Shown: positions 7,462 through 55,165, counted from the first letter of the stretch. The stretch is 64,000 nt of DNA from Candidatus Kerfeldbacteria bacterium (GCA_016207275.1 JACQPY010000012.1:1706-65705); one strand, 5' to 3'. A program made the numbers and translations. Notes: generated by a model not told the origin, from the letters alone.

Positions 7462-7500
7462 CCCTAACCGCCTTACCCCTTAATACTACCCCCATACCCC
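7454..7500. repeat. Right arm of the inverted repeat flanking the four-helix-bundle gene (C-rich on + strand; reverse complement GGGGTATGGGGGTAGTATTAAGGGGTAAGGCGGTTAGGGCTAAGGG)
   Basis: Read directly. Imperfect inverted copy of the 7024-7068 arm. Confidence 0.5.
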
Positions 7501-7665
7501 ATCTCTCTTACTAACCACGAAAGGAGGTTATACTCTTTACAAAGCCGTCCTTCCGCAGTACAGTCACCCCGCTCATTGACAACTGAATAAAGCAGAAAAT
7601 CGCGAATTCGGTTGTCGCTCACGGAAACCGTTGTGATGTCTGACTTTCAAGAGGAGGCAGTGAAG

Positions 7666-24959: not shown

Positions 24960-24961
24960 CT

Positions 24962-27900: not shown

Positions 27901-30118
27901 CAGCGCCACGCCGAACGTGCCGCCCGACGGCGCCAACCGGTACGCGACGCCGAGTAAAGTTAACGTGGCACCGACCACGACGGCCTTGGCGCCGGGCACC
28001 TACAACGCCACCATCACCCTTGACGGCGGCCCGGGTGTGGACAGCTCGCCGCAGCCGATCGCAGTAACCTACGTCATTACCGCCGCGCCGCGCTTACAAC
28101 TGACGCCCGGACCAAACCCGACTTTGGCGTTCACCGCCACCCAGTCGTCGGGAACCGACCCGGCGCCGCAGGACGTGGTCGTGCAGAACGCCGGCGGCGG
28201 GGCGATCACCTGGACGGCGACGAACCCGGTCAGCTGGATTACGTTGACTAATTCAAGTGACGGCAACGGGCCGACGACGATGCGGATTCAAGTGCGTAAT
28301 GTCCTGGCCGCCGGCGACTACACCGCCGCCATCACCGTCACCGCCACGACCGGCGGCGGGTCAGTCGTCGACAGCCCGCAAACCATTGCCGTCCAGTTCC
28401 ACGTTGACCCGGCGCCGGTGCTGTCGGTCAGCAAGTCCAGCCTGACGTTCACCACCACGCAGGGTACGAACCCGCCGGAACAAACGTTCATCGTTCAGAG
28501 CGGCGCGCCGGCCGGCTGGAGCGGCACGACCAGCGTCACGCCGCCCTTAAACTGGCTGTCGATCACGCCGACCACCGGCACCAACTACAATGACCCGAAT
28601 GATCCGGTGCACGTCCGGGTTGACGTCGCTGGCTTGGCCGTCGGTACCTACGCCGGCACGATCACCATCAGTTCGTCCGGCGCCGTGCCTTCCTCGATGA
28701 CCATCAATGTGACCTTGAACGTCACGGCGCCGCCAGTGCTCGACGTTAATCCGCGTTCGATCACGGTGACCACCGATGAGGGCACGACCGCCACGACTCA
28801 GCTTGGAATCTTCAACAACGGCGGGGCGGGCACGACCATGAACTGGGATATGGCCCAGCCGGCCGCCACCTGGGTTCGTTTATCGTTGACCGCCAGCTGC
28901 GCTGGTCCGTTCGGACCGATCAGCGGCGCGTTGGTCGGCGGACAGTCGGTCGTGGTCACGGTCTGTATCGACACGGTCAATCCGACGCTGTTGACGCCGG
29001 CGGCGTATGCTTCGACGCTGACCATCAACGCGCCGGGCGCGCAACCGGCGGCTGCCGGCGTCAACAACGTCCCGGTGACGCTGAACGTTCTGGCCGACAC
29101 CACCGGTCCGACGGTCGTCGCTGGCAGTATCATCATCGACGCCGACGGCGTGTGCGTCGGCGGCGGTCCGCCGTACTACTTCGGCCGAATCAAGTGGCAA
29201 ACCAGCGAACCAGCCGACTCGCGCGTCGAGTGGGGTGAGCAATTAGTGAGCGGAGTTCCGCCGTATGAACTCGGCTCACTGGTGAGGCCGGAGGGTCTCG
29301 ATACCGCGGCCCACACAGGCGGGGTGGTTGATCACGAGGTCATACTCGATAACTTAAACGGCATTGTCGGCGGCCACACCTACTACGTTCGGTTAACTTC
29401 AATGGATCGGTACCGCAATGTTAGTCCCTGGACCGACCACTTTGAGGTCCCACGCAGCAACGAATTCTTGAGCTTCACCGTGCCGAATGCCTGCGATACT
29501 ACGCCGCCGACCAACGTGATTCTGACCGTGCCGCCGGGCACCCTGTCGGGAACGGTCAACGTCAACCTCAGCGCCGAAGACCAGTCGCGGATTGATCGCT
29601 TTGAAATCTATGAGGGGTTAACGCCCGGTCGTTCGGTGGTGGCCACGGTAGCCGTTCCGGCCGCCGCCTGCTTCTCGACCGGACCGACCTTCAGCTGCAG
29701 CGTCACCTACGCGCTTGATACACGCCTGCTGCCTGACGGTCAGGCCCAACTGTACGCCCGGGCCTTCGACCTGGCCGGGAACTCGGCCGATTCGCCCAAC
29801 GTGGCGATTACCGTGAACAATGCCGTGCCGCGGGTGTCGAACGTCAAGGCCGTCCCGTCAGTACTGGCTAACGGCCTGTGGCAGGCGCTCGTTACCTGGG
29901 ACACTGATCTGCCGTCGAACTCGCTGGTGGACTACGGCATGGAAGACGACGACGGCAACTTCAACGGCTACACCGATCAGCAAAGTCCTGATGACAGCGG
30001 TCGGAACGACCTGATCGCCGGTCATCAAGTGACCCTGACCAATTTGCCGGCCGGCCACATCTTCCACTACCGCGTGACCTCCTGCTCATCGGCTAACCCG
30101 ACCTTGTGCGGAAACTAA
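24962..30118 (+). CDS. Giant (1718 aa) secreted protein: signal peptide, BNR/Asp-box beta-propeller region, then multiple Ig-like/BACON-like beta-sandwich repeats
   Basis: Signal peptide MGRRSTYLCLASVAALSTAMVLLWSTSARA. At least five S-x-D-x-G-x-T-W Asp-boxes (TTNGGTSW, STNSGSTW, TTDGGSNW, STDSGATW, SIDGGKTW). Repeated ~90-aa units with an L-x-V-S-x-S-S-L-S-F-T...W-L-S...G-T-Y-T-G-T-V-T-V pattern. Confidence 0.7.
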   Translation: MGRRSTYLCLASVAALSTAMVLLWSTSARALTITPMPPTATQVSPTQETITWQTDATTTSDQVQYGLSYSLQWTAKQLSISGSPRNETVVGVKAVNAQRAFVATAPTGGTSVLYETTNGGTSWTERWSYTLESPGALEVDVPANRVYVGTANGFVHVLTLSGSSVAQCDTQLGITDMALANRKLWVVGLGTTTVKEVDPASCAVVNHAVNLSAVDPSATYLTDIAAITIGGTTTLWVTSNDVSIATSTNSGSTWSTAVLGTPGSPLGFEDIGAVSNARAYAVGRNGGIYLYSGGTWSVAPTTTSLDFLSLGVGSDSKIFAFGCCTGGFDYYSFSGDGSSWSSLVTMATSTNALAASFVTPNVGWLGGFSGRLALHSVAYPSSTPASNGTNHTATVSGLQEATYYHASAISNTSTQTAESGNFAFKTQELTITDPLGPTATTTSSSATITWNTPNQASLAADSRIYLSANPGWQSTSISGSSLRGISAVGDGAYLVGQTSNAIFRANGLAPNPPLSLIAPPGRAEGIVMVGNRGWAVGQNFIMRTNDAGAIHDGTSWVSQSNGVPSSTYFTNVTAIDDQHAWVVGDNIILRTTDGGSNWNTVLAPLRVLYDTAVVDALTLVAAGDNGYIHRSTDSGATWTQLPRTLPDAAVFGLSFASATAGWAAGFGGVIGQSIDGGKTWSEPFNATSCGFNTTTFYDVAAISPNDVWFVGSGGKVLHWTGAGSCPQTVLIGTATNLRSVDVDGANVWITGENGLVARYGVDTASSSYRSLTDASLTRAHSLTVNVPPLTPNTTYNYFVQSYDAAGYTAVSPLKTFTTQAVPQLQVTPSSLSFTATQGQNPAPQTFLVKDQNNGNIGGWNLSSTTAWLSSPGAVTPTSGPGTPSDTVSVTPNVAGLTVGTYTGTVTVNATDPGVDPTSTPKTVNVSLTITPPPKLTVSSTSLSFTAQENGSAPGLQTVDVTNGGGGTLTYTTDTGGTTWLSATPNVPPDGANRYATPSKVNVAPTTTALAPGTYNATITLDGGPGVDSSPQPIAVTYVITAAPRLQLTPGPNPTLAFTATQSSGTDPAPQDVVVQNAGGGAITWTATNPVSWITLTNSSDGNGPTTMRIQVRNVLAAGDYTAAITVTATTGGGSVVDSPQTIAVQFHVDPAPVLSVSKSSLTFTTTQGTNPPEQTFIVQSGAPAGWSGTTSVTPPLNWLSITPTTGTNYNDPNDPVHVRVDVAGLAVGTYAGTITISSSGAVPSSMTINVTLNVTAPPVLDVNPRSITVTTDEGTTATTQLGIFNNGGAGTTMNWDMAQPAATWVRLSLTASCAGPFGPISGALVGGQSVVVTVCIDTVNPTLLTPAAYASTLTINAPGAQPAAAGVNNVPVTLNVLADTTGPTVVAGSIIIDADGVCVGGGPPYYFGRIKWQTSEPADSRVEWGEQLVSGVPPYELGSLVRPEGLDTAAHTGGVVDHEVILDNLNGIVGGHTYYVRLTSMDRYRNVSPWTDHFEVPRSNEFLSFTVPNACDTTPPTNVILTVPPGTLSGTVNVNLSAEDQSRIDRFEIYEGLTPGRSVVATVAVPAAACFSTGPTFSCSVTYALDTRLLPDGQAQLYARAFDLAGNSADSPNVAITVNNAVPRVSNVKAVPSVLANGLWQALVTWDTDLPSNSLVDYGMEDDDGNFNGYTDQQSPDDSGRNDLIAGHQVTLTNLPAGHIFHYRVTSCSSANPTLCGN

Positions 30119-30122
30119 TCGT

Positions 30123-33100
30123 ATGACCGTCCGACCTTGGCCACGATCGAAGATTAATCACCGGGCGTTTGTCCGCAGGCTACTTATTGCTTCCGCGACA
30201 ATGATTGTTGGGGTAGCGACAATATTCTCGTTGGTGCGAGTGGCCGCGATCCCAGACGCGGCCGAAGCGCGACAGTGTTTACCAGGTCAAGGTTACTGCC
30301 CGACCAGCCCGACCTCTCGGGTTTGTGACGGCGACTGCTACGGCAACCAGCGGTGCGTGGCTGAGCCGTTTGAAACCGTCGGTACGTTGGTGCCGGATTC
30401 GACATGCAGCGGTTCGACCACCCTGACCATTTCTAACGTCAGTCACGGCACGCCGGGGTCTGACCGAGCGACCATCACCTGGACGACTAACCTGGCCGCC
30501 AGCACCGAGCTTCGCTACGGCCTGACCAGCTTCCTCGGCTCCACGCAGGTTAATACCGTGCCGAGCTCAACCAGCCATTCAGTCACCATTACCGGCCTGC
30601 AGCCGTCAACCACCTACTATTATCAAGCCTACTCAGAAACCGGTCCTGACCCCGACGACCTGCGCGCGACCAGCAGCCTTCGTAACTTTACCACCTCGAG
30701 CGGCGCGCTCGGCGGGACCTTACCGACCATCGTCCTCGGACCCGAAGAACGGGTCAACATCGATACCGCCCGCATCACCTTCAAGACCAACGTTCCGACC
30801 GCGGCGCTGATTGAGTTCAGCACAGAACCGAACACTCAGCCTGATTCCGGTAATCCCGGCTACAGCCAGGTCTGCGACGCCTCGGCCAACTGCAGTTCGC
30901 CCCCACCGCAGCCGAACGTTTTAAACATCGATCACACCATCAATCTGACGGGCTTATCACAGCCGTCGAGCCCATACTTCTACCGCATCACGATTATTGA
31001 CGCCAACCGCAACGTCTTCGCGCTGCCTGATCGCTTTACCACGACGGCCAGCTCGAACGACTACATCTTTTCCACCGGCGACTGCGACGACGGTACGCCG
31101 CTGCGGCAGTGCAACGCCGATAAAAAGTTCTGCCGACCCGGCAACCGCGACCCGGTTTTCGACTGTCGGCCGAATATCGCCTGTCCCTACACCTGCCCGG
31201 GCGGGTCAACCTGCGCAGAATCCGGCGACTGCATACAAGATCCGGCCCTCGGCACCTCGCCGACCGAGTGCAATCCCAAGTCGTGTTACCTCAAGTGCGA
31301 CGGCAACAGCGGCAGCTTCAGCGGTCGTCGCTGCGGCATTGACGCCGACTGCAACGGCGGCAAGTGCATTGTCGGCTCGTTCACTACGCCGGCCGGGCCG
31401 GGCTGCTACGCCAGCTGGCCGTCGTGCGACGCGAACGTCATCCTGAAAGTCAGGCCCGACCGCGTCTGCGACAAGTGGCTGACCTGCAAGACCTCGCTGC
31501 CGGTGACCAACGCCCAGGGCCAGACCCAAAACCAGTGCTTAGATTTGACCATCTGCGATTCCTTGACGCCGAACGGCCAGTGCAACAACGTCCTCGAAGG
31601 CCGGCAGTGCGACAACGACCCGTTGCGGTTTTGCGCCGACGATGCTGACTGCCCGGGCGGCCGGTGCTCGCTCGCTAACGAACCGCGGGCCCTGACCTTC
31701 CGCACGCCGGAAGAAGTGTCGCAAATCAGCGGCTTGACCGGCTATTCCGTCGCTGGTCTCGACTGGCATGGCCAGCCGAACTCACTGAAGATTGATGGTT
31801 ACTACCCGCTGTCGGTCGCCAAGCAGGTCGGCACGCGCTTCGACATTCCCAACAGCAATTTCGAGGATTCGGTCGTGGTTCAGCGATGCCAGAACCCTAT
31901 TACGAAGTCGTGCACTCAGGACAACGACTGCACGCCGAGCAAGTGCATTTTCTTGAGCTCGCTGTCGCACCCGAACGTGCGCAACATCTTGGTCGCCGAG
32001 CACTGGGAGCCGGTCAATCCGGTCGGCTCGACCAAGAACGCGGCCGTGACGCTCGACAGTGAGACGTCGAAAACCAGCCCCAACCACATGCTGAAGATTA
32101 CCCCCTCGAACCTGGCTGATTCCGGTGCGCAGACGTCGGCCGGCGTTGAGCTGCGAACGTCTGCTCAGGCTGAGTACCTGCTCAGTTTCCGGATCCGGTC
32201 AGAGCAGAACGAGCAGCCCGTGACGGTCAGCCTGGTCAACCCGACGACCGGCGATCGGCAAGTCCTCGGCGACCTTTTCTTGACCACTGGCTGGCAGGCC
32301 TTGCTGCTCGGTCCGAAAGCGGGCGTCAACGGCGACACCCGAATTGCGTTTACCACGCCGGTCACCGGCGAACCGGTGTCGTTCTGGATTGATGATGTGG
32401 CGATGCTGCCGGCCCTGAAGGTCAGCGATACGAAGTACGTCCCGCAATCCTGCCGTCTCTACCCGAGCGACGGCGCGCCGACCTGCGACTTCACCGACCG
32501 CAACGGTTTGCTGTTTAAAGGATTAAAAGGCTACTGCCTGGAGCGCGACTCGCTCAATTCAGCGATCTGCTTGTCGTGGTGGCCGGTTGACGCAGTCTTT
32601 GGCGACAGCGTGTTTGGGGCGGCTGACCAGGAAGCCGGCTACCGCGACCGCCAGCCGCTCTATGCCTGCGCCGAGGCGGTCGGGCAGTCTTCGAGCTTTA
32701 ACACCGGCGCAACAATATTTACCGGCGTTGACTGCGATGCGGACACGGCCGGTCCAGTGATTGCGCTCTATCCGGGCGGATCCGGAGGGCTATGCAACGA
32801 GCAGCTCGGCCCGTACCGGCCAATGACGACAAAATTCCCTGCAACAGCTGATGCCATTAAATTATACGGCCAAAATTTCGGTGGGCCTTGTAATACGATA
32901 GAAGATAGAGCCGAATGTCGGGACGGTACTCAGCCGGGATTCTGCTTCTGTTCAAAGCTAGGATACGACTCGGGGTTGACAACGCCGTCCGCAACGGATC
33001 AGAAAATACACAAATATGACGTTGAGTACTTCCGTGTCCATATGATGCGGTATAACCAGAACGGCGACAGCACGTGGGACAGAATTGTGCCAATCGCGGG

Positions 33101-34763
33101 GGATATCATTCTCAACGAGGGCAATGGGTGGTTTGCCCGGGCAGGAGCGGACGCATCTAACTGTGCAGGCATGTGGTTTGAACTGAAGTGGGATTCGGTT
33201 GACCAACACCTCACGGGAATCAACTGGGGGGCGCAACGATGCGCAAATAGCAATGAGGCCGCGTCAGGATTCTGGGCTCAAGGTTTGTTCTTCATGAAGG
33301 AGCGCTGCACAAAACTGGTCCAGGTAGCAACTGACGATAGCGTGACAGCCTGGGCAGACCGGACTTCGAACGCAGCGACGTACGTGGTACCCGATCTCAA
33401 CTATCGCTACGTCAATGATTTGGCGCCGTTCGGCACGGCCGCCCCGCGGACCGTTGAAGAGCCGGATGACTGGAATAAGTTTGAGCCGTTGACAGTCCAA
33501 GGACCAGACGTCAGCCGGCCCTCGCCGAATCAAGTGCGAGCCGGCAGCGCCTACGCTTGCAAAGGAAATTGCAGCGGTCGGGTGTGTTCGAACTTGAGCG
33601 GCCGCCAGGCCGGGCAGTTCTGCCTGGATTCCTCCGACTGTTTCGACGACAATGGCACGCCGAAGGATTCAACTGACGACCGTCAGGGCACCTGCGAAGG
33701 CAATGGTTTTTGCGCCACGTACGATGCGGGCACAAAGACCTATGACTTCGACCAGGAAACAGCTAAAGCCTGCACTCGCGGTTACAGCACTGGCACGCGC
33801 TGCGACGCCAACAGCAGCGTCAATAAAGGAGCGACCTGCACGGCTGACGCGGATTGCCAATTTACGACTGGCCGGTGCGTGAATCTGCCAGGCCAACTGC
33901 GTGGCAAATGCGACGGCAACAGCGGCAGCAAGTCTAGCAGTTCGTGTTTCAATGACAGTGAATGCCGCGATACAGCTGGACGCTGCGTCACCGGCGTCTG
34001 TCCAGCTGGCCAGCAATGCTGCAGCCAGCCGAACGAAGAGTGCATTGGCGGCGCAGCCTCGAATCGCGGCACCCAGACGCTGAACTCGTCCGTACCGACG
34101 CTGGCGAGCGGCAGCTACGCCCAGTACAACTTAATGCGCCTGTTTGCCAAAACCTACGGCCTGTGGGAGTGGAACATAACCAGCGGCAAGTACGAGCAAC
34201 AAACATCGTTCAGTTCTTGGAACCCGCCAACGACGCTCTGCAAGGTCTGCTCTGGCGGAGCCGACGCGAACAAAGCCTGCACCGCTGACGGCGATTGCAC
34301 CGGCGGCACCTGCGTAGACGCGGTTCGTCACTCGTCTGAAGCGGTGACGAGCGAACCGACCGCTGACTACTGCGCCATCAAGCCGACCATCACCAACATT
34401 TCCAATCGTGACGTCGCCTCGGTCGTACTCGATGAAGGTGTAACGTACACCTTGCGGTTCAATAGCAACGTTGATCTGGAACAGCGGCCGCTGACCGAGG
34501 TAGCGATTGATTGGGGTGACGGCGATACTACGGTTGACGGCAACTTACGAATTGCCCCGCGCGACGATCCGAATCGGCCGCATGCCTACACTCACGTCTA
34601 CCACTGCGGGCGCAAAGGGATCTGTAATTACCAAGTGAAAGTGCGCATCCGCGACAACTGGGGCTGGTGCGACAACGGGGTGGCTAGTACGCCATGTAAG
34701 CCGACCGTCGGTACCAGCACGGCTGACTGGCAGAACGGCCCGCTCATCCAGGTAGTTCGCTAA
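30123..34763 (+). CDS. Giant (1546 aa) membrane-anchored cysteine-rich surface protein sharing the CxxDxDC-type modules with the 19209 gene
   Basis: N-terminal TM (LLIASATMIVGVATIFSLV). Motifs CADDADCPGGRC, CTQDNDCTPSKC, CTADADCQFTTGRC, CFNDSECRDTAGRC, CTADGDCTGGTC, CGIDADCNGGKC. Confidence 0.7.
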   Translation: MTVRPWPRSKINHRAFVRRLLIASATMIVGVATIFSLVRVAAIPDAAEARQCLPGQGYCPTSPTSRVCDGDCYGNQRCVAEPFETVGTLVPDSTCSGSTTLTISNVSHGTPGSDRATITWTTNLAASTELRYGLTSFLGSTQVNTVPSSTSHSVTITGLQPSTTYYYQAYSETGPDPDDLRATSSLRNFTTSSGALGGTLPTIVLGPEERVNIDTARITFKTNVPTAALIEFSTEPNTQPDSGNPGYSQVCDASANCSSPPPQPNVLNIDHTINLTGLSQPSSPYFYRITIIDANRNVFALPDRFTTTASSNDYIFSTGDCDDGTPLRQCNADKKFCRPGNRDPVFDCRPNIACPYTCPGGSTCAESGDCIQDPALGTSPTECNPKSCYLKCDGNSGSFSGRRCGIDADCNGGKCIVGSFTTPAGPGCYASWPSCDANVILKVRPDRVCDKWLTCKTSLPVTNAQGQTQNQCLDLTICDSLTPNGQCNNVLEGRQCDNDPLRFCADDADCPGGRCSLANEPRALTFRTPEEVSQISGLTGYSVAGLDWHGQPNSLKIDGYYPLSVAKQVGTRFDIPNSNFEDSVVVQRCQNPITKSCTQDNDCTPSKCIFLSSLSHPNVRNILVAEHWEPVNPVGSTKNAAVTLDSETSKTSPNHMLKITPSNLADSGAQTSAGVELRTSAQAEYLLSFRIRSEQNEQPVTVSLVNPTTGDRQVLGDLFLTTGWQALLLGPKAGVNGDTRIAFTTPVTGEPVSFWIDDVAMLPALKVSDTKYVPQSCRLYPSDGAPTCDFTDRNGLLFKGLKGYCLERDSLNSAICLSWWPVDAVFGDSVFGAADQEAGYRDRQPLYACAEAVGQSSSFNTGATIFTGVDCDADTAGPVIALYPGGSGGLCNEQLGPYRPMTTKFPATADAIKLYGQNFGGPCNTIEDRAECRDGTQPGFCFCSKLGYDSGLTTPSATDQKIHKYDVEYFRVHMMRYNQNGDSTWDRIVPIAGDIILNEGNGWFARAGADASNCAGMWFELKWDSVDQHLTGINWGAQRCANSNEAASGFWAQGLFFMKERCTKLVQVATDDSVTAWADRTSNAATYVVPDLNYRYVNDLAPFGTAAPRTVEEPDDWNKFEPLTVQGPDVSRPSPNQVRAGSAYACKGNCSGRVCSNLSGRQAGQFCLDSSDCFDDNGTPKDSTDDRQGTCEGNGFCATYDAGTKTYDFDQETAKACTRGYSTGTRCDANSSVNKGATCTADADCQFTTGRCVNLPGQLRGKCDGNSGSKSSSSCFNDSECRDTAGRCVTGVCPAGQQCCSQPNEECIGGAASNRGTQTLNSSVPTLASGSYAQYNLMRLFAKTYGLWEWNITSGKYEQQTSFSSWNPPTTLCKVCSGGADANKACTADGDCTGGTCVDAVRHSSEAVTSEPTADYCAIKPTITNISNRDVASVVLDEGVTYTLRFNSNVDLEQRPLTEVAIDWGDGDTTVDGNLRIAPRDDPNRPHAYTHVYHCGRKGICNYQVKVRIRDNWGWCDNGVASTPCKPTVGTSTADWQNGPLIQVVR

Positions 34764-34767
34764 GGCC

Positions 34768-37700
34768 ATGGTTCTTATTAACTTCATCCAGCGCCACCAA
34801 AAACCAACCGCCGTCATCCTGGCGGTCGTCTTACTGTCGGCATTCTGGCTGGCCGTGCCGCATGAAGTTAAGGCCGTCGGCGAGGGCATCATCGCCAACA
34901 TCCTGTCGTGGCTGGCGTACCAGTTGATCACCCTGATGGCCAACCTGCTGGTGGTGGTGGTCAACATCTTGGTCGCCGTCGCCCAGTACAACAACTTCCT
35001 CGGCGCGCCGGCGGTTGAGCGCGGCTGGGTGATTGTCCGCGACATCGCCAACATGTTCTTCATTGTGGTTTTGCTGATCATCGCCTTCGGCACGATTTTG
35101 CGACTGGAAAACTACCGCTACAACCGCCTGCTGGCACGGCTCATCGTCATGGCCATCTTGGTTAACTTCTCCAAGTTCATCGCCGGTTTCTTCATCGACT
35201 TCGGCCAGGTCATCATGCTGACCTTTGTCAATGCCTGGCGTGACGTGGCCGCCGGCAACATCACCCACGCCCTCGGCCTGACCGAGATCATTCAGCTCCG
35301 CAACCAACCGCTGCCCAGCGGCCAGGAGATCAGTTCGGGAGCGGTGCTGACCGCGCTGCTGCTCGGCTTGTTCCTGGTGACGGTGGCCGTTATCGTCCTG
35401 GCGATCATGGCGATCGTCCTGATTTTGCGCGTCCTGGCCCTGTGGTTCTTGGTTGTCCTGTCGCCGCTGGCATACCTCTTCCGGACCTACCCGGCGACCG
35501 AGAAATATGCGGCCCGCTGGTGGCAGGAATTCGGCCGTTACGTCGTGGTCGGGCCGGTGATGGCGTTTTTGCTGTGGTTAAGCTTGGCGGTCATGACGGC
35601 GCCGGTGCAGTTTAGCGAAGAAGTGTTTACCGTCGTTAAAACTACCGAGGGATCGGCAGTGATCGAGCCGACCGACAGCGCCACCGCCAACAACGTGGCC
35701 GCCGCCATTTCGACCATTGGCCAGTCCGACAAGCTGTTGGGTTACATCACCGGTATTATGCTCCTGGTCGGCACGCTGATGATTACCCGCGAGCTGGGCG
35801 TGGCCGGCGGCCAGCTGGCTGGGCAGTGGGCCGAGAAGATTCGGGGGTTTGCCACCAAGGCGGCGGTGGTCGGGGGCGCTGGTGCGGCTTTCGGAGCGTT
35901 AGGAGTAGCTGGCGTGACGGTTGGCAGGCCGGCGGCCAAGCTGGCCGGCAAAGGGATTGCGGCTGGCGCAAAAGGGCTTGGCAATGCGATTATCGACCGT
36001 GCACAAGTTGCCCTGGGAGGAATTCCGCTCAGACCGAGCGTCTGGGCCGAGGGATTCAAGCGCGCCAGCGCCCGGCGTCGCCATGATTGGGAGGAAAAAC
36101 GTTGGCAAGCGGCGAACAAGAACATGGAAGAGGCGCTCAAGCCGGCGGTCGGCAAGAAGATGAGCGCTGCCCGGCGAGCCTGGAAATTCGCAGTTGGCGC
36201 CGCCGGTTCGCCGGAATACTTTAAGTATAATCTTCTGACTTTTGGCAACTTCGGTAAAATGATAGCTGGCCGAGGCGGCGAGGTGTTGGGCGGGGATTTC
36301 TCCGAAGCCAGCGAGGACTACAACCGGACGCGAGAGCGAGCCAAGGCCATGGCTCGCGAACGGGAACTAATGCAGGGCTCGCGCGACCTTGGACAGTTTT
36401 ATGTTCAGGAGACCGCTGGTCAACGCGTCCAGTCAGACGTTAATGCGGAGGCAGAAAAAATCAGGTCCGAGCGGACCCGCGATCTTCGCGCTGACGTCAA
36501 CTTCTTCGAAGAGAAGGACCACGAAGGAAAGGTCGTGCGACGCCTGCCGCTGGCTGAATACATCAGCGGTTTGATGCGCGATGAGGGGTATGATCCGACC
36601 TCAGGCGACGAGCGGACCGTGCGACGTCGAGCGGCCCTGGAAAAAGAGCATGATGAGCAGTTGGCGCGGTCACGCCTGGTGAAAGAGGAACAGCAAGGAC
36701 AGCTAACGGCCAAGGTCGCCGAGGTCGCCAAGGACCGGGCTGCCAACCCGGCCAGCCGCTATGGCCGTAAGACGGTCAAAAAGGACAAAGAAGAGGTCGA
36801 AGTCAGCTTCGCCGATGCACTGGATGAAGCCATGGACAAGAAGTTCCCTAAGAATTTTAATCGCTATCTAGAGTCTCAGGGGATTGATCCGCGCGCCAAG
36901 GATGATGGGACTAAGTTGAAGATTGAGGCACTCCGGCCGGGATACGAGGCGATTTTCAAGAAAGAGTTTGAGGACAATTGGAATAAGGAACAGGCTGAAG
37001 CCGAACTGGAGTTAAGTCCAGAATACCAGGATCCGATGGCCACGCGGGAGGAGCGTTATCGCCAGGAAATCCTGAAATCAGCGCCGGAAAACGAGCTCCG
37101 ACGGCGGGGACAAGCAGTGCATGAGGAAGAGGTTAAAAAGCTGCGCGATCAGGCAGCCGCGATCAGGGCCGGCGGATTAACCGAGGGGCAGCATGAACGG
37201 AGAGAGAAGGAGCTGATTGAGGTCATTAAGAAGCTCGAACAGATTGACAAGGATTTGAAGACCCACTCTCCTGGAACGCCGGAGTACTCGCGGCTGATGG
37301 AGGAGCGCGCCGAACGCGAAAAGCAACGGCAGCTGCTTGAGCGTTACCTCAAGCCGAAACCTGGTGAAAAACCGCCGCTGAACGACGATGAGAAGAAAGA
37401 AGGCGAGAAAGAAGCCGAGAAACTGGAAGAGGCAGCCAACCTCCAAGAAGGAATGGCTAAGCGTCGCGTGACCGATACTGAGCTGCGGTTGATGGACGAA
37501 GCCATAGACGCGCAGGAGAAGAAAGTGCGCGACCAGGCTAAGGTCGTCAGCCGGCTCCGTCCGGCCGTGCCCAAGGAACTGCGACGCGAGCTGCGCGCGT
37601 CGATTGCCGAGAAAAAGAAGGAAATTACGACTGAGCAGTGGCAGGAGCAGCTGTCAATTTTCGAGGACGCGGTTCGGCGCGGCGATGCGAGTACGGCTGC

Positions 37701-38424
37701 GGCCGCGGGTATCCGGGCGGCCGAGGATTTTAACTTGAATGAGTTTCAAACCAACTTAGGATACGATTCCGACGCTGAAGGCCTGAAACAGATGATAGAC
37801 GATTACTTCATCGGCAAACTGGGCATGTCCGAGGATCAGGCGCTGTCGATCGCCAACGACATGTCGCATGCCGCCGAAAAGGTCAACCACTGGGGAGTGG
37901 CGCGGGCAGTCAAGACCGACACCGTTACCGGTCGGCAGCACTTCCAGGATGAGCTTGATCGAGAAATGGAGGTAAGCGCTGAGATCCGGAAAGGCGACTT
38001 TGAAGGCACTATCCGTCGCTTTAATCGTCTGGCCTGGGGCAAAGAAGTGATTGGCGCCGGTACTGACATGGAGCGCGCCTCGCCAGCAGAACGCGCCGAG
38101 TACTATCGCCAGACCGGTGACCGCAGCTTCGTTTCTCTGCCTTACGGCCTGGCCTTCTTGGCTGAAAACTTCGGAAAGTCCGAGCGGAACATCAAAACCG
38201 GTCGGTTCAACCCCAACTATGCCACCAAGTTGTTCGACCCGGCAAACCGCCAGATGCTTGAAATGTTAGTAAAAGCGCTTGGTAATTTTACCCAGCTCGG
38301 GGATTCGCGTAAGGTCACGATGCCGGAAATCTTAGCACTCATACGGCAGTTCGGCGCCAGGGATCGCAGCGCGGCAGGCGATTTCGACCGCTTGCGAGAC
38401 TTCTGGCGCCGGTCCGGCCGCTAG
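34768..38424 (+). CDS. VirB6/TrbL-like polytopic membrane protein with a ~900-aa charged/coiled-coil cytoplasmic tail
   Basis: 1218 aa. The N-terminal ~330 aa hold at least 6 hydrophobic helices rich in aromatic and small residues, typical of TrbL/VirB6. The remainder is a highly charged, low-complexity K/E/R-rich region. Confidence 0.5.
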   Translation: MVLINFIQRHQKPTAVILAVVLLSAFWLAVPHEVKAVGEGIIANILSWLAYQLITLMANLLVVVVNILVAVAQYNNFLGAPAVERGWVIVRDIANMFFIVVLLIIAFGTILRLENYRYNRLLARLIVMAILVNFSKFIAGFFIDFGQVIMLTFVNAWRDVAAGNITHALGLTEIIQLRNQPLPSGQEISSGAVLTALLLGLFLVTVAVIVLAIMAIVLILRVLALWFLVVLSPLAYLFRTYPATEKYAARWWQEFGRYVVVGPVMAFLLWLSLAVMTAPVQFSEEVFTVVKTTEGSAVIEPTDSATANNVAAAISTIGQSDKLLGYITGIMLLVGTLMITRELGVAGGQLAGQWAEKIRGFATKAAVVGGAGAAFGALGVAGVTVGRPAAKLAGKGIAAGAKGLGNAIIDRAQVALGGIPLRPSVWAEGFKRASARRRHDWEEKRWQAANKNMEEALKPAVGKKMSAARRAWKFAVGAAGSPEYFKYNLLTFGNFGKMIAGRGGEVLGGDFSEASEDYNRTRERAKAMARERELMQGSRDLGQFYVQETAGQRVQSDVNAEAEKIRSERTRDLRADVNFFEEKDHEGKVVRRLPLAEYISGLMRDEGYDPTSGDERTVRRRAALEKEHDEQLARSRLVKEEQQGQLTAKVAEVAKDRAANPASRYGRKTVKKDKEEVEVSFADALDEAMDKKFPKNFNRYLESQGIDPRAKDDGTKLKIEALRPGYEAIFKKEFEDNWNKEQAEAELELSPEYQDPMATREERYRQEILKSAPENELRRRGQAVHEEEVKKLRDQAAAIRAGGLTEGQHERREKELIEVIKKLEQIDKDLKTHSPGTPEYSRLMEERAEREKQRQLLERYLKPKPGEKPPLNDDEKKEGEKEAEKLEEAANLQEGMAKRRVTDTELRLMDEAIDAQEKKVRDQAKVVSRLRPAVPKELRRELRASIAEKKKEITTEQWQEQLSIFEDAVRRGDASTAAAAGIRAAEDFNLNEFQTNLGYDSDAEGLKQMIDDYFIGKLGMSEDQALSIANDMSHAAEKVNHWGVARAVKTDTVTGRQHFQDELDREMEVSAEIRKGDFEGTIRRFNRLAWGKEVIGAGTDMERASPAERAEYYRQTGDRSFVSLPYGLAFLAENFGKSERNIKTGRFNPNYATKLFDPANRQMLEMLVKALGNFTQLGDSRKVTMPEILALIRQFGARDRSAAGDFDRLRDFWRRSGR

Positions 38425-42328: not shown

Positions 42329-42841
42329 ATGCCGCAGTTTATCGTCCCGCAGTTCATCGATGTCGAGGACAAAATCATTGGTCCGATCTCGGTCCGCCAA
42401 TTCCTGACTTTCCTGGTCGGGGCCGCGCTCATTTTTGCCAACTATCAGATTGTCTACAAAGTTTTGTACCCCAATTTCTGGGTTTTTGCCATTAGTTCAA
42501 TCTTCATTTTCGCCGTGGCCGGCACCTTTGCCTTTTTGAAAATAAACGGCCGAACCTTCCACTACTTTCTACTCAACTTATTTGTCACTATGCAAAAGCC
42601 GCGGCTACGAGTCTGGAATAAACGACTGCGCCGCAGCGATTTCCTCACCAAGGAAGAAGCGGTTGAGATCGCCGCCCCCCTACCGGTCAAAGCACCCCTG
42701 ACCATGCGCAAGCTGACCGAGCTGTCGTTGATCGTCGATACCGGCGGCGCCTACCGCGAAGAGCTTCCCGAAGAGTCCACCCCGCCGTCCACAACCACTA
42801 AACCCGGCACGGTCACTGACATCTTCGCCGACCTCGCCTAG
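42329..42841 (+). CDS. PrgI-like (VirB3-like) small membrane protein of Gram-positive/CPR-type T4SS
   Basis: 170 aa. N-terminus MPQFIVPQFIDVEDKIIGPISVRQFLTFLVGAALIF matches the characteristic PrgI-family start, followed by two TM helices. Confidence 0.5.
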   Translation: MPQFIVPQFIDVEDKIIGPISVRQFLTFLVGAALIFANYQIVYKVLYPNFWVFAISSIFIFAVAGTFAFLKINGRTFHYFLLNLFVTMQKPRLRVWNKRLRRSDFLTKEEAVEIAAPLPVKAPLTMRKLTELSLIVDTGGAYREELPEESTPPSTTTKPGTVTDIFADLA

Positions 42842-42845
42842 CGAT

Positions 42846-43547
42846 ATGGTCAAAACGAAAGTCGTCAAACCGAAACCCAGCGTCAAAATTCAGAAGAAAG
42901 CTGAGTCGACTCAACGGTACCTCGACATCCTCGAGATTAAAGATGACGTGGTCGTGCTCAAGGATGGTTCGGTCCGCGCGGTCGTCTTGGTCGCATCGAT
43001 TAACTTCGACCTGAAGAGCGAGGAAGAGCAAGCGGCGGTCATTTCCAGCTACGTCCAGTTTCTCAACGCGATTGATTTTCCCCTCCAGATCGTAGTCCAA
43101 TCGCGCAAGCTCAACATTGACAGCTACTTGGATAAACTCAAGGACCTCGAAAAGCAGCAAACCAACGAGCTGCTGAAGCAACAAACGGTTGAGTACCGCC
43201 AATACATTCAAGAGTTGGTCGAAATCGCCGACATCATGACTAAGCGATTTTACGTGGTGGTGCCGTACTCGGAACAGTCGGGACGACCAAAGAGGTTCTG
43301 GTCGCGAGCGGTCGACGCTTTTTCGCCGACCAACGTGATCCACCTCAAACAGAAGAAGTTTGAAGAGTTCCGGACCGAGCTCTTCAAGCGGGTCGAGTAC
43401 GTCATCGACGGCCTGGCTTCGGCCGGGCTAAAATCGGCGGTGCTCGATACCCAGAGCTTGATCGAGCTGTACTACAACACCTACAACCCCGAGACCTCGG
43501 CTGAACAGCATTTGGTTGAGGTCGGGAAGATCCAATTAGAAGCTTAG
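42846..43547 (+). CDS. VirB4-family N-terminal domain encoded as a separate ORF (first piece of a split VirB4)
   Basis: 233 aa. YLDILEIKDDVVVLKDGSVRAVVLVASINFDLKSEEEQAAVISSYVQFLNAIDFPLQIVVQSRKL follows the conserved N-terminal pattern of Gram-positive VirB4/TcpF/PrgJ-type ATPases. Confidence 0.5.
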   Translation: MVKTKVVKPKPSVKIQKKAESTQRYLDILEIKDDVVVLKDGSVRAVVLVASINFDLKSEEEQAAVISSYVQFLNAIDFPLQIVVQSRKLNIDSYLDKLKDLEKQQTNELLKQQTVEYRQYIQELVEIADIMTKRFYVVVPYSEQSGRPKRFWSRAVDAFSPTNVIHLKQKKFEEFRTELFKRVEYVIDGLASAGLKSAVLDTQSLIELYYNTYNPETSAEQHLVEVGKIQLEA

Positions 43548-43662
43548 AGCTTGTAGCGGTTAGCTTTTAGGGACCCATCGAATAACCACTTGCCTGATGA
43601 AAATTAATCACTCTTCGCTACCGCTACCAGCTACCAGCTAAAAGCTATCAGCTTCTTCAACC

Positions 43663-45564
43663 ATGGCTGACATCAACCTATCCAAACTTAAAGCTGGTCA
43701 GACCCTGCCGACCAAGCAGGAAATCCAGCGTGAACGACCGCCGGCGCCGGTCAGCGCCGCCGAGCTGATCGAGGCCGAGCGGATCTACCGTCGCGGCGTC
43801 ATTTCAGTCCGTGACCTAATCGCCCCGGCGGCCCTGCGCGTCGATACCAACTTCATTCAGCTTGGCGCCAAGCACGTTCGGACCCTGTTTGTCGTGACCT
43901 ACCCGCGTTACATTGCGGTCGGCTGGTTTGCGCCGATCATCAACTTCAATTCGCCGCTTGACATCGGCATGTTCTTCTACCCGGTCGAGTCGAAAATCAT
44001 TTTGAAGCAGCTGAAGAACAAGGTTGGTGCGCTCGAGGCGCAAATCCTGTCCGACGCCGAGAAGGGCGCGCCGCGTGACCCGATCCGCGAGACGGCGCTG
44101 CGCGATATCGAGAAGCTGCGCGACGACCTGACCCAAGGCACCGAGCGGTTTTTCCAGTTCGCCCTCTACGTTACGCTCTACGCCAACTCGCGCGACGAGC
44201 TCGATCGCTTGACCGAAAAGATCGAGGGCTTGTTCGGCTCGCGGTTGGTCTACAGCAAGCGGGCGTTATTCCAGGCAGAGCAAGGATTTGTCTCGACCGT
44301 GCCGCTCGGCCTTGACCAACTACTGGTCACCTTCAACATGAACTCCAGCCCGGTGGCCAGTTCGTTCCCCTTCATCTCCAGCGACTTGACCAGCGACAAC
44401 GGCATTCTCTACGGCATTAACCGACACAACAACTCGTTGATTCTGTTCGATCGGTTTAGCTTGCAGAACGCCAATTTTACGGTTTTTGCCACCTCGGGCG
44501 CCGGCAAGAGTTACGCGGTTAAGTTAGAAATTCTCCGTTCGATGATGTTCGGCACTGATATGATTGTCATCGATCCGGAGAACGAGTACAAGTATTTATC
44601 GGACGCGGTTGGCGGTACCTACGTCAGCATTTCGCTTAACTCCGATTCGAAAATCAACCCGTTTGACTTGCCGCGAGCCGTCCACGGCGATGAAAAGCCG
44701 GCCGACATCATCCGCTCCGCGGTCATTACCCTGAAATCGCTCATTCGCTTGATGCTGGGCGAGCTGACTAACGAAGAAGATTCGATCATTGATCGAGCGC
44801 TGTTAGAAACCTACGCCAAGAAAGACATCACCCCGGACAGTGACCTGGCGACGGTTGAACCGCCACTGATGAAGGACTTTGAAGAGGTCCTGGCCGGCAT
44901 GGTCGGGGCGGAAAATCTGGTCCAGCGGCTGAAGAAGTACACCGAAGGCACCTTTGCCGGCTTGTTCAACAGCCCAACCAACGTCGAGGTCAACAACCAG
45001 CTGATGGTTTTCTCGGTTCGGGATTTGGAAGACGAGCTGCGGTCGATCGGCATTTCGATGATTGTCAGCTACATTTGGAACGTCGCCCGCTCCAAGCTCA
45101 AGAAGCGCATTCTGACGATTGATGAGGCTTGGTGGCTGATGCAGAACGAAGATTCGGCCAAGTTCATCTACTCGCTGGTCAAGCGGGCCCGTAAGTACTA
45201 CCTCGGCGTGACCACCATCACCCAGGACGTCAATGATTTCCTCCGCTCGCCCTACGGTCAGGCGATCGTCAACAACTCGGCCTTGCAGCTGTTGATGAAG
45301 CAGTCGCCGGCCGGCATCGATATTGTGGCCAAAACCTTTTTGCTGACCCAGAGCGAGCGCTACCTCTTGCTCGAAGCTGGCGTCGGCGAGGGGATCTTCT
45401 TTGCCGGCGCCAAGCACGCCGCCATCAAGGTGGTGGCCAGTTACACCGAGGATCAAGTGATTACCTCCGACCCGCGGCAGCTGCTGGAGATCGAGGAAGC
45501 CAAGAAGGAGTTTGAAGAGTCGCTGGCCCGCGGTGAGGTTCCAACCACCGCCGATGTCCGCTGA
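43663..45564 (+). CDS. virB4: VirB4/TrbE/CagE-family T4SS ATPase (second piece; contains the ATPase domain)
   Basis: 633 aa. DLIAP...YIAVGWF, DIGMFFYP, Walker A FATSGAGKSYAV, IVIDPENEY, TQ sensor region. Confidence 0.85.
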   Translation: MADINLSKLKAGQTLPTKQEIQRERPPAPVSAAELIEAERIYRRGVISVRDLIAPAALRVDTNFIQLGAKHVRTLFVVTYPRYIAVGWFAPIINFNSPLDIGMFFYPVESKIILKQLKNKVGALEAQILSDAEKGAPRDPIRETALRDIEKLRDDLTQGTERFFQFALYVTLYANSRDELDRLTEKIEGLFGSRLVYSKRALFQAEQGFVSTVPLGLDQLLVTFNMNSSPVASSFPFISSDLTSDNGILYGINRHNNSLILFDRFSLQNANFTVFATSGAGKSYAVKLEILRSMMFGTDMIVIDPENEYKYLSDAVGGTYVSISLNSDSKINPFDLPRAVHGDEKPADIIRSAVITLKSLIRLMLGELTNEEDSIIDRALLETYAKKDITPDSDLATVEPPLMKDFEEVLAGMVGAENLVQRLKKYTEGTFAGLFNSPTNVEVNNQLMVFSVRDLEDELRSIGISMIVSYIWNVARSKLKKRILTIDEAWWLMQNEDSAKFIYSLVKRARKYYLGVTTITQDVNDFLRSPYGQAIVNNSALQLLMKQSPAGIDIVAKTFLLTQSERYLLLEAGVGEGIFFAGAKHAAIKVVASYTEDQVITSDPRQLLEIEEAKKEFEESLARGEVPTTADVR

Positions 45565-45640
45565 TCCCGTTAGAAAGCCTTTCGCTACAACGAGAAATAG
45601 TCGACTCTTATGAAACAACACAGGCTGACTTTCTAACGGG

Positions 45641-49636: not shown

Positions 49637-51169
49637 ATGCGACGCTGGTGGGTGGTGTTAAGCTTGACAGTAGGGCTGACGATTGCGGTCGGCGCGTCGG
49701 CTCAGAGTACTGGCTGCTGCGTTACGTCAAGCCAAACGTGTGTCCCAAACCTAACCCAGTTGGCCTGCGATCAAACCTACCCGGGCGGCAGCGCCGGCGG
49801 CAACTTTTACGCAGTCGCCAGCTGCAACGACGTGCCTTTTTGCGCCACGCTGGGCAAGTGCGAACGGACCAGCCCGGCTGACTGCAAGAACCTGAAGCGC
49901 TGGGAGTGCGACCAGTTGAGCGGCCAGGGCTACAATTTTTTTGCGAACCAGGTTTGCGGCGGCGGCGTGGCCACGGGACGTTGCTGCGCCGAGGACAAAT
50001 CAGCGCGTAACCCGTCGTGTCGCGAAGACCTTGATCGTAATAGTTGCCAGTTGATTGGCTGGGAGTACTACACCACCGCCTGCAGCGCTGTCGCTCACTG
50101 TCCGCAAGCGCGGTCCGGAACGCCGTTCGGCAAAGTCATCGGTTCCTGTACCTTGCCTGACGGCACGTGCACGAATAGCTTGAGCCTCGAAGACTGTACT
50201 AAGCGGCAAGGCAAGTTTGCAAAGGATCAGGTATGCCCGTTATTTTTCACGCCCAACGTCCCAATTCCGGGGCTGTTCGAAGGCGAGCAGCAGGTCAGCG
50301 GCACGTTATTTTCCCGCTACCTCGGCGCTTTTTTCGTCTACTTCATCGGCGTGGTCGGTATCTTGGCCGTGGTCATGATGATGTGGGGCGGGTACCACTA
50401 CATCGTGTCAGCCGGAAATCCGCAGAAGATGAACCAGGGCAAGGAAATCATCAGCGGGGCGATCATTGGCTTGGTACTGGCCCTAACCTCATTCTTACTG
50501 TTGCAGACGATTAACCCGGCCTTGGTCAACTTTCGCGGGATTCTACCGATCTACATCGGCCAGATTTTAGTCAGGGAAGAGCGCGAGGCCACGCCGCTGA
50601 AGAAAGACGTGGCGACCAAAGCGGACGTGAGCACCTCGACGCTCAAATCGATATTGTCGCTGGTCAAGCAAAATAGCTACGATCGGATGGTTCTATCTGA
50701 AGCGAACAACGATAAGGAGGTTGCCTATCGGGCCCTGTCCATCCTCTTCATTGAGTCGTCAGGCGTTGCTAACGCAAAATCAATCGCCAACGCTTACGGA
50801 CTGATGCAGTTGCTTCCGGCGACAGCGGAAACCTGCGGCGTCGCTGTCAACGATCTGTTCGATCCAGCCAAGAACATCAAGGCCGGCGTTTGTTACCTCA
50901 AGAGTCTCTTGAGCAATCCTTGCCCGACGCCGGAACAGATGAAAAAAAGAAATGTCGTGTGCCGAGTTGGTGAGGTTTGCAAAAAAAGCGAGATCAAGTT
51001 TGTCTACGCTGCCTACAACGGCGGATCAGCCGCAAACTTCTGTTCCAGCACTTGTCTCGGCCAAACCTGGTGGCAGTGCACGGAAAACCCTGGATATGAG
51101 GAAACGAGAGTCTACGCTCAAAAGGCTCAGCTGGTGTATGACTGGCTGTGGGAGCAGAAGGTGTACTAG
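49637..51169 (+). CDS. Tripartite protein: Cys-rich secreted N-domain, pilin-like hydrophobic hairpin, then a C-terminal lytic transglycosylase (SLT/VirB1-like) domain
   Basis: 510 aa. Signal peptide. Pilin-like block FFTPNVPIPGLFEGEQQV...MMMWGGYHYIVSAGNPQKMNQGKEIISGAIIGLVLALTSFLLLQTINP. SLT motifs ESSGVANAKS...AYGLMQLLPATAETCGV...AAYNGG. Confidence 0.6.
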   Translation: MRRWWVVLSLTVGLTIAVGASAQSTGCCVTSSQTCVPNLTQLACDQTYPGGSAGGNFYAVASCNDVPFCATLGKCERTSPADCKNLKRWECDQLSGQGYNFFANQVCGGGVATGRCCAEDKSARNPSCREDLDRNSCQLIGWEYYTTACSAVAHCPQARSGTPFGKVIGSCTLPDGTCTNSLSLEDCTKRQGKFAKDQVCPLFFTPNVPIPGLFEGEQQVSGTLFSRYLGAFFVYFIGVVGILAVVMMMWGGYHYIVSAGNPQKMNQGKEIISGAIIGLVLALTSFLLLQTINPALVNFRGILPIYIGQILVREEREATPLKKDVATKADVSTSTLKSILSLVKQNSYDRMVLSEANNDKEVAYRALSILFIESSGVANAKSIANAYGLMQLLPATAETCGVAVNDLFDPAKNIKAGVCYLKSLLSNPCPTPEQMKKRNVVCRVGEVCKKSEIKFVYAAYNGGSAANFCSSTCLGQTWWQCTENPGYEETRVYAQKAQLVYDWLWEQKVY

Positions 51170-51171
51170 GA

Positions 51172-51262
51172 GGTTAGGTCTTAGGAAATTAGGAAGTTAG
51201 GTTTTAGGGGATTAGGGAATTAGGGGTTAGGAAATTAGGCAGTTAGGAAGTTAGGTTGTTAG
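51172..51262. repeat. Tandem array of about 13 TTAGG units separated by 1-3 purine-rich nt (degenerate telomere-like (TTAGG)n)
   Basis: ggTTAGGtcTTAGGaaaTTAGGaagTTAGGttTTAGGGgaTTAGGGaaTTAGGGgTTAGGaaaTTAGGcagTTAGGaagTTAGG, read directly. Confidence 0.75.
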
Positions 51263-54699: not shown

Positions 54700-55165
54700 T
54701 GGCCTTGATCTGTCGGATCCGTCGGCGGTCGCGCGTCGTATTTCGAAACCTCGTGGCCAAGAAGGTGCGAATGATTTTCCAGGAGGCGGCAGCGGTCAAG
54801 CGGTCGGCTGGCAGCGCCAGGACGTTGATGTTGTCGTCTCGTCGCGCACGTCTGGCAAGCCAAGGATCCGGAGCGACCGTAGCCCGGACGCCCATCACTT
54901 TATTTGCGACTACCGCCACGCCAACGCCAGAACGACACAGGAGAATGCCGCGGTTTCCTTGGTCACGAGTGACGGCTCGGGCAACTCGCGCAGCGATTGG
55001 TGGGTAGTCGTCAGACGGATCGAGGCGGCGGGCGCCTATGTCGATGAATGGAATTTTTGCTTTAGCCAGCATGTGCTTGAGCTGTTCTTTGAGTTTGTAT
55101 CCGCCGTGGTCGGTTCCGAGGAAGATTGTTAGACGTTTGACGTTTGACATGTGACTTTTGACCAA
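54680..55165 (-). CDS. rpiB: Ribose-5-phosphate isomerase B (RpiB/LacAB family)
   Basis: 161 aa. LGTDHGGYKLKE, GILLCRSGVGVAVVANK motifs. Confidence 0.85.
   Translation of the reverse strand: MVKSHMSNVKRLTIFLGTDHGGYKLKEQLKHMLAKAKIPFIDIGARRLDPSDDYPPIAARVARAVTRDQGNRGILLCRSGVGVAVVANKVMGVRATVAPDPWLARRARRDDNINVLALPADRLTAAASWKIIRTFLATRFRNTTRDRRRIRQIKAIEHATR

Follow-up and report, generated by a model that had tools for sequence, protein, structure and literature searches.

Type IV secretion systems (T4SSs) of Patescibacteria carry TrsD together with the VirB4 ATPase, and this TrsD+VirB4 arrangement has been published (Quinonero-Coronel et al. 2025, PMC12102498). Among the T4SS components of Patescibacteria, TrsD is reported to be the most abundant, with 2272 homologues, 1664 of which are associated with VirB4, and to be essential in S. 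epibionticum (PMC12102498). According to the summary of Mrazek 2007 in PMC4679880, the long simple-sequence repeats of many bacteria are most commonly heptanucleotide repeats, with polymerase slippage as the proposed cause. Such repeats include the TAACTGA repeats upstream of start codons in Beggiatoaceae (PMC4679880) and the GGGNATC repeats of Xanthomonas and Nostoc, which follow a strand rule around stops and starts like that of the Patescibacteria arrays reported below (PMC4692102). Here, the junction between a trsD-like gene and virB4 is analyzed in a 64-kb stretch (hereafter the window) of a Candidatus Kerfeldbacteria (Patescibacteria) genome. The two genes, open reading frame 1 (ORF1) and ORF2, are located on the plus strand in different frames and are separated by a repeat-rich spacer of 115 nucleotides (nt; positions 43548–43662). 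The locus is best explained, with a probability of about 0.8, as a conserved trsD-like/virB4 pair that has recently acquired a spacer of inverted heptamer arrays; the arrays would have grown by slippage, and the hairpin that they are predicted to form would keep the two genes translationally coupled.

ORF1 (42846–43547) encodes a 233-residue protein that is homologous to the N-terminal part of VirB4, as judged from profiles, homologues and the predicted fold, and represents a free-standing version of this domain (PF26593 'TraC-like'). The protein matches positions 90–282 of the 894-position NCBIfam profile VirB4_plasma, which describes VirB4 of mycoplasma integrative and conjugative elements (ICEs), with an E-value of 6.5e-11. 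The match to the TrsD/TraD model NF041427 has an E-value of 4.7e-7, but its bit score of 29.8 is below the cutoff of 200. A local Pfam scan of ORF1 gave no match; the PF26593 assignment is precomputed on the database protein identical to ORF1 and on all 120 listed homologues. ORF1 has 5806 homologues, and the best 120 of the 5806 are all 218–251 residues long and come from Kerfeldbacteria and other Patescibacteria. A phmmer search of ORF1 against PDB sequences returned nothing meaningful. In the AlphaFold model of ORF1 the mean predicted local distance difference test score is 71.7, and the best 14 Foldseek matches of this model in the PDB are all R388 TrwK/VirB4 chains, with probabilities of 0.89–1.0 but template modelling scores of no more than 0.39. 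In BLASTP, ORF1 aligns to residues 114–313 of a fused VirB4-like protein from a Rubrobacter plasmid (E 1e-12). The C-terminus of ORF1 reads ..QLEA, compared with ..QVE in its relatives.

ORF2 (43663–45564) encodes a 633-residue protein and, on the evidence of its sequence, is a bona fide VirB4 ATPase gene. The protein exceeds the cutoff of the NCBIfam family conju_CD1110 (342.4 bits against 325, covering profile positions 178–729 of 752) and that of the Pfam family P-loop_TraG (98.5 bits against 25.8; E 4e-28), and matches the VirB4 C-terminal domain structure of PDB entry 4AG5 with an E-value of 1.1e-47. Its translation contains the Walker A motif ATSGAGKS and a DEAW motif. ORF2 also matches the VirB4_plasma profile that is matched by ORF1, at positions 292–892, and aligns to residues 379–967 of the fused Rubrobacter protein (BLASTP, E 2e-61). 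The gene lies in a T4SS cluster, as neighbouring ORFs match PrgI, T4SS_pilin (twice), SLT and, weakly, TrbL.

The Rubrobacter protein consists of 1344 residues and carries the ORF1 and ORF2 counterparts colinearly on one polypeptide, and the break between ORF1 and ORF2 corresponds to a non-conserved linker of this protein (residues 314–378). The two-gene layout was compared in 83 related loci (L001–L083; 80 genome loci and three Logan contigs). Both genes were found in 77 of the 80 Patescibacteria genome loci, as separate ORFs in 77 of 77 and as a fused gene in none. Across these 77 loci the gap between the two ORFs has a median of 8 nt and usually ranges from -32 to +20 nt; the ORFs overlap in 16 loci and are 0–20 nt apart in 37. 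An apparent 692-nt gap in L052 is an artefact of the rule used for ORF ends, and the trsD-like ORF in that locus ends in TAATG and overlaps the virB4 start. trsD and virB4 are likewise split on a Pontibacillus plasmid, with an 11-nt overlap, and both split and fused versions are found on Bacillota and Actinomycetota plasmids. The two-gene VirB4, with a trsD-like gene directly 5' of virB4, is thus an ancient and conserved layout with two intact genes and no disruption, and it is the published and already known norm in Patescibacteria. The proper annotation of the locus is trsD-like plus virB4, with neither a pseudogene nor a split gene. A preliminary description of this DNA had given the coordinates of both ORFs and of the gap correctly, together with a combined length of about 866 residues that approximates one VirB4 (233 + 633). 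Its suggestion of a genuinely two-piece VirB4 is borne out by the contiguous profile positions (90–282 and 292–892), by colinearity with the fused protein and by the 77 two-ORF loci, and the upstream gene is indeed a homologue of the VirB4 N-terminal region. In contrast, its picture of a gene split around a 115-nt element does not hold. The split itself is genuine, old and previously described, most lineages having a gap of only a few nucleotides, and the spacer is not its cause.

The spacer comprises a left array, a unique core and a right array, which were delineated from the sequence, with a repeat finder and with Tandem Repeats Finder (TRF). The left array (43536–43572) is purine-rich and is built of units of approximately 7–8 nt with a TAG core (TTAGAAGC TTAGAGCT TGTAGCGG TTAGCT TTTAGGG). 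The final ORF1 codons and the ORF1 stop codon (43545–43547) lie within it. The 44-nt core (43573–43616) is non-repetitive, occurs once in the window and constitutes the loop of the predicted hairpin. The right array (43617–43656), detected by TRF and by a lag-7 self-match scan, is a pyrimidine-rich heptamer array, (C)GCTACC GCTACCA GCTACCA GCTAAAA GCTATCA GCTTCT, that mirrors the left array as its reverse complement and stops 6 nt 5' of the ORF2 ATG. TRF reports a period of 7 with 5.4 copies and 83% matches at 43617–43653, and GCTACCA is directly repeated at 43623–43629 and 43630–43636. The left array is more degenerate than the right array, and its units vary from 6 to 8 nt. A search of the spacer for ORFs of at least 20 residues found none.

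Two exact inverted pairs connect the arrays. In pair A, GTAGCGGT (43553–43560) is complementary to ACCGCTAC (43620–43627), and in pair B, TAGCTTTTAG (43561–43570) is complementary to CTAAAAGCTA (43638–43647). Both pairs are parts of one imperfect inverted repeat of 33 nt, in which 43538–43570 and 43624–43656 are 79% complementary. The 18-mer GTAGCGGTTAGCTTTTAG, which covers both left arms, has an opposite-strand copy with three mismatches at 43638–43655, where 0.01 chance matches with up to three mismatches are expected per window. Further pairing registers of the arms are shifted by 7, 14 and 28 nt, all multiples of 7 (i + j = 87180, 87194, 87201 and 87208). The inverted repeats appear interleaved because both arms are tandem arrays of ~7-nt units that pair in 7-nt-shifted registers.

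In the predicted RNA structure, the spacer folds into a nested foldback hairpin (43538–43656) with a minimum free energy of -32.9 kcal/mol for 43538–43665. The hairpin combines stem A with flanking AGCU pairs, and its outer helix is formed between 43538–43544 and 43650–43656. The ORF1 stop codon is thereby placed just inside the helix, and 6 nt lie between the 3' arm and the ORF2 AUG. The fold of 43530–43675 has a z-score of -2.69 relative to dinucleotide shuffles, and 1 of 200 shuffles was as stable. The next intercistronic spacer (45565–45640) is also an end-to-end foldback. Its perfect 12-bp stem, CCCGTTAGAAAG/CTTTCTAACGGG, begins 2 nt past the virB4 stop and reaches as far as the last base ahead of the following ATG, and its RNA fold (-31 kcal/mol) has a z-score of -4.53, with none of 200 shuffles as stable. 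A similar end, ..CTAACGGG-ATG, was also observed in L013 and L014. Both long spacers of the T4SS cluster are predicted to fold end to end. When the 20 long spacers at the trsD–virB4 junction (19 from relatives and the one in the window) were folded, 10 had z-scores of -2.3 or lower, and most of these hairpins span nearly from stop to start. Terminal pairing of -15 kcal/mol or stronger was found in 13 of 94 co-directional spacers, compared with 5 for the reversed control and 2 for the shuffled control (Wilcoxon p = 0.01 against the shuffled control).

The 115-nt spacer is a recent, lineage-specific and fast-evolving addition in which two inverted degenerate heptamer arrays surround the 44-nt core. 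Four relatives with 80–83% ORF1 identity (L003, L004, L082 and L083) lack a spacer and have gaps of 4–6 nt between ORF1 and ORF2. The nearest relative (L081, 92% identity) contains a 91-nt spacer without sequence similarity to the one in the window, but the layout is alike, with TTTGAC-type heptamers on the left and GTCAAA-type heptamers on the right. The L001 junction carries a TTAGG-type direct array, and the L002 junction carries GTAGTT/AACTAC inverted arrays. Junction spacers of 40–240 nt are also present in ~20 loci of distant classes, most of them with a similar build from unrelated units, such as TTAATTAG x4 / CTAATCAA x4 in L041 and AGCACTTx / GTGCTAxx in L069. The spacers of relatives are non-homologous and offer no covariation for the hairpin. 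Two of the trsD–virB4 junctions hold insertions of other kinds. In L074 (913–1441), an ORF resembling a GIY-YIG nuclease is flanked by GTCATTCTGGCTTGTCCAGAATC inverted repeats, and in L030 (1214–1353), a 140-nt hairpin element of the form GTCATCCCGA..TCGGGATGAC has a z-score of -9.

The spacer belongs to a class of intergenic arrays with periods of 7 or 8 nt that are numerous both in this genome and among the Patescibacteria loci sampled. A lag self-match scan, in which at least 19 of 24 positions had to match and shuffled sequences served as controls, identified five arrays in the window, four with a period of 7 nt and one with a period of 8 nt; there was almost nothing at other periods, and the shuffles yielded none. 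Other arrays of this class lie in or beside intergenic DNA at 5293–5369, 7020–7060 with a complement at 7452–7510, 11920–11961, 51167–51262 and 55127–55163. Their units are TTAGGnnn, AGTGGTT, GGGTAAG with its complement, TGAAGTA and GTTTGAC; 51167–51262 consists of 13 TTAGGnnn units, TTAGG is also found at 5293, and 55127–55163 is built of GTTTGAC units. Several of these arrays start within the stop codon of the upstream gene. The related loci total 483 kb, of which only 6% is intergenic by crude gene calls. Period-7 arrays in these loci are found 39 times in intergenic and 3 times in coding DNA, period-8 arrays 9 times and once (48 and 4 for the two periods together), and period-14 arrays 18 times and once, while other periods are nearly absent from intergenic DNA. 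The arrays are often inverted pairs with different units in each lineage, for example at L041:3668–3748, L069:2787–2880, L025:2417–2523 and L053:2827–2960. No array was detected in ~117 kb of control DNA from an E. coli chromosome region, the Pontibacillus plasmid and the Rubrobacter plasmid. The sense strand of stop-side arrays is rich in purines, and in 11 of 25 cases the array overlaps with the stop codon; start-side arrays are rich in pyrimidines, and most of them terminate no more than 15 nt from the start. In addition, perfect or near-perfect (GCTACCA)n arrays with 2 to >19 copies were identified in at least 120 metagenome contigs (L088–L207) with guanine-cytosine (GC) contents of 0.29–0.72, and the GCTACCA unit is therefore not lineage-specific. 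Several of these contigs have an adjacent inverted TAGC-type array (e.g. L120, L124 and L138, in the last case just upstream of a ruvC-like start). A literature search restricted to one library found no paper on heptamer arrays in the candidate phyla radiation (CPR)/Patescibacteria, and a search on mismatch-repair loss in Patescibacteria gave nothing usable.

Genes of the T4SS cluster abut by 1–6 nt, which suggests translational coupling, and a Shine-Dalgarno-like core (GGAG, GAGG or AGGA) lies within 15 nt of the start in only 2 of the ~44 genes of the window. The array was probably seeded by a heptamer at the stop codon, grew by replication slippage and then underwent inverted duplication. 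In the mRNA, the two arms would form the imperfect hairpin and bring the trsD stop near the virB4 start. A ribosome that finishes trsD would melt the 5' arm, the pyrimidine-rich 3' arm would be released to act as an unstructured virB4 leader, and translational coupling would thus survive the additional 115 nt. Preservation of trsD–virB4 coupling by the hairpin is plausible as a model.

Several other explanations of the locus were considered. A single virB4 gene broken by an insertion or by an assembly error, which would make the locus a pseudogene or an artefact, would fit the total of 866 residues and the different frames of the two ORFs. It can practically be dismissed, however, given that the two-ORF layout recurs in 77 independent assemblies, some of them complete-length contigs, that both ORFs are well conserved in close relatives (80–92% and ~90% identity) and that the split point lies in the non-conserved linker of the fused homologue. 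In favour of an RNA pseudoknot with a regulatory role in ORF2 translation, the A-B-A'-B' order of the repeats is topologically of the H-type and both stems are exact (-12.3 kcal/mol for stem A and -10.4 kcal/mol for stem B). This structure is nevertheless highly improbable. Stems A and B abut without any loop-1 nucleotides, and a loop 1 of zero nucleotides is sterically unfavourable for a 10-bp second pseudoknot stem. The two stems sum to at most approximately -22.7 kcal/mol before any pseudoknot penalty, and forcing stem B yields only -21.0 kcal/mol, so that the nested fold is far more stable. Moreover, the interleaving is accounted for by the 7-nt register shifts. An Rfam scan of 43300–43900 at E ≤10 found no family in the spacer and matched only a chance snoRNA inside ORF2, and the spacer sequence is absent or different in all relatives, the 92% relative included, which leaves neither conservation nor covariation. 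The spacer would also be long enough to hold an internal promoter or terminator that divides trsD and virB4 into separate transcription units, and sigma-70-like promoters are used in this genome (e.g. TTGACA-17-TATACT at 4411–4439). A pattern scan found neither -35/-10 nor intrinsic-terminator sites inside 43548–43662, and the hairpin is not followed by a T-run, which makes this division of the operon very unlikely.

Two further explanations concern the origin of the spacer. The spacer could be a small non-autonomous mobile element of the miniature inverted-repeat transposable element or foldback type, with terminal inverted repeats made of tandem subrepeats, that inserted between trsD and virB4. 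Such an element is suggested by the presence/absence polymorphism among close relatives, by the inverted repeats at the spacer ends (33-nt arms), by the different 'families' that occupy one site in different lineages and by the clear insertions at the same junction in L074 and L030. Unit types also recur elsewhere, as GTTTGAC is found at 55127–55163 and at the L081 junction, and TTAGG at 5293, 51167 and the L001 junction. We nonetheless regard a mobile element as unlikely. The arms and the core have no second copy within the 64-kb window, which is the only part of the genome that could be searched, an exact search of the metagenome collection contigs with a 24-mer of the core gave no hit, and no target-site duplication is recognisable in comparison with the empty sites of relatives. 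The units are degenerate, many arrays stand alone without an inverted partner, and arrays often begin inside a stop codon, as expected if they are seeded from local sequence. A neutral by-product of slippage-prone replication, without effect on expression and tolerated because transcription reads through, is a considerably stronger contender and quite possible, although on balance we do not favour it. The rapid turnover and lack of sequence conservation of the spacers fit such an origin, as do the slippage proposed for heptanucleotide repeats in the summary of Mrazek 2007 and the spread of (GCTACCA)n over at least 120 contigs of widely different GC content. The orientation of the arrays, however, follows that of the genes, with purines prevailing after stops and pyrimidines before starts, and end-to-end foldbacks are commoner than in controls. 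In addition, the operon is reported to be essential in a cultured relative, and an inert 115-nt gap would break an otherwise tight coupling. Among the proposals of the preliminary description, the repeats themselves stand, because both inverted pairs are exact and the ctaccag-type direct repeat is present. The inserted small element survives as a lineage-specific gain absent from the 80–83% relatives, but it resembles locally expanded heptamers and not a defined mobile element. The pseudoknot or regulatory RNA gives way to the nested hairpin that structure prediction favours. On the whole, the observation is confirmed and its interpretation is partly supported: the spacer is a further case of heptamer simple-sequence repeats, a class known from other phyla, in a gene architecture that was already known.

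Several points weigh against a slippage-born spacer whose hairpin preserves coupling. The hairpin in the window is only moderately better than shuffled sequences, with z-scores from -1.6 without flanks to -2.7 with flanks. The long junction spacers of L001, L011, L031 and L033 contain direct arrays only and do not fold, and the hairpin is therefore no universal property of these spacers. The terminal-pairing test is weak against the reversed control (Wilcoxon p = 0.06), and gene calls in the related loci follow a crude longest-ORF rule. A neutral, functionless origin fits the rapid turnover of the spacer equally well.

A wider generalization is doubtful but can be formulated. Patescibacteria may possess undescribed, phylum-wide 'foldback spacers', in which a purine-rich heptamer array is seeded at a stop codon and its pyrimidine-rich complement abuts the next start. 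Their sequence would turn over while their architecture is kept by coupling, through ribosome-driven unmasking of a pyrimidine-rich landing pad in genomes without Shine-Dalgarno motifs. If so, inserted DNA could be tolerated or tuned by essential operons such as that of the T4SS. As a lead, the inverted arrangement from stop to start in Patescibacteria is of modest interest. Although ultra-small and very compact, these genomes are rich in period-7 arrays, which are gained and lost between close relatives and, in operons reported to be essential, often form hairpins from stop to start. If the arrays affect expression, they would provide cheap and fast-evolving tuning of subunit ratios in organisms largely devoid of Shine-Dalgarno motifs, and possibly strain-level markers; if they are neutral, they illustrate how slippage-prone replication shapes the scarce non-coding DNA of such bacteria.

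The region belongs to a chromosomal T4SS gene cluster with the order PrgI/VirB3-like, TrsD-like, VirB4 and pilin-like. The PrgI/VirB3-like gene (42329–42841; Pfam PrgI, E 1.1e-7) is on the plus strand and ends 4 nt 5' of ORF1, and related contigs have this gene order as well. Upstream of the T4SS core genes, four giant ORFs of 1916, 1718, 1546 and 1218 residues are arranged in series, 0–4 nt apart, at 19209–38424. The last of them, the sole one of the four scanned against Pfam, gave only a weak TrbL/VirB6 match (E 0.006). Elsewhere in the window, a gene for a 138-residue '23S rRNA intervening sequence protein' (7045–7461; PF05635, E 5e-34) sits between inverted heptamer arrays, GGGTAAG-type upstream and CTTACCC-type downstream, and the gene with its flanking arrays could be a cassette-like insertion. 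The leucyl-tRNA synthetase gene (11132–14116) has an in-frame insertion of ~130 residues at residues 263–385, between ..SEGAEV and VFTTRPDT, that contains an ASCH domain (E 2e-6). A heptamer array ahead of this insertion reads in frame as FEVGSMEYEVWGKG. The insertion was also considered as a cassette between inverted arrays, but this was rejected, as an array is present on the upstream side only.

The gene pair does not differ in any essential respect from the published TrsD+VirB4 arrangement. In the T4SSs of the mating-pair formation class FATA (MPF-FATA; prototype pGO1) and of Patescibacteria, the TrsD and VirB4 (TrsE) pair likewise consists of a remote VirB4 N-terminal homologue of ~230 residues directly upstream of the ATPase, and the gene clusters also contain PrgI/VirB3-like, VirB6-like and VirB2-like pilin genes. 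Only the 115-nt repeat spacer is added here, whereas most relatives have a few nucleotides or an overlap at this position. In the one-piece VirB4/TraC ATPases (R388 TrwK, the CD1110 family, mycoplasma ICE VirB4 and the 1344-residue Rubrobacter protein), the N- and C-terminal parts are colinear with ORF1 and ORF2, but they form a single polypeptide, while two polypeptides with a break at a poorly conserved linker are encoded here. The spacer resembles the short tandemly repeated repetitive (STRR) sequences of cyanobacteria, the TAACTGA repeats of Beggiatoaceae (PMC4679880) and the GGGNATC repeats of Xanthomonas and Nostoc (PMC4692102), all of which are tandem 7-nt units concentrated in non-coding DNA beside stop and start codons. 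As here, the known repeats show strand polarity, with purines or G enriched on the sense strand past stops and the complement ahead of starts. Copy number varies in the known repeats; here, no second assembly of the strain was found, and the nearest relative L081 already has a different unit. Unlike the known heptanucleotide repeats, the units of the Patescibacteria arrays are degenerate and differ between loci and between close relatives, and the arrays are frequently inverted pairs that span the whole intercistronic spacer. The repetitive extragenic palindromic (REP) and bacterial interspersed mosaic element (BIME) hairpins of enterobacterial operons are imperfect palindromes between co-transcribed genes and can alter the relative expression of the flanking cistrons. 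The spacers described here are imperfect intercistronic palindromes as well, but whereas REP sequences form a conserved family of hundreds of copies, the Patescibacteria spacers share their architecture and not their sequence.

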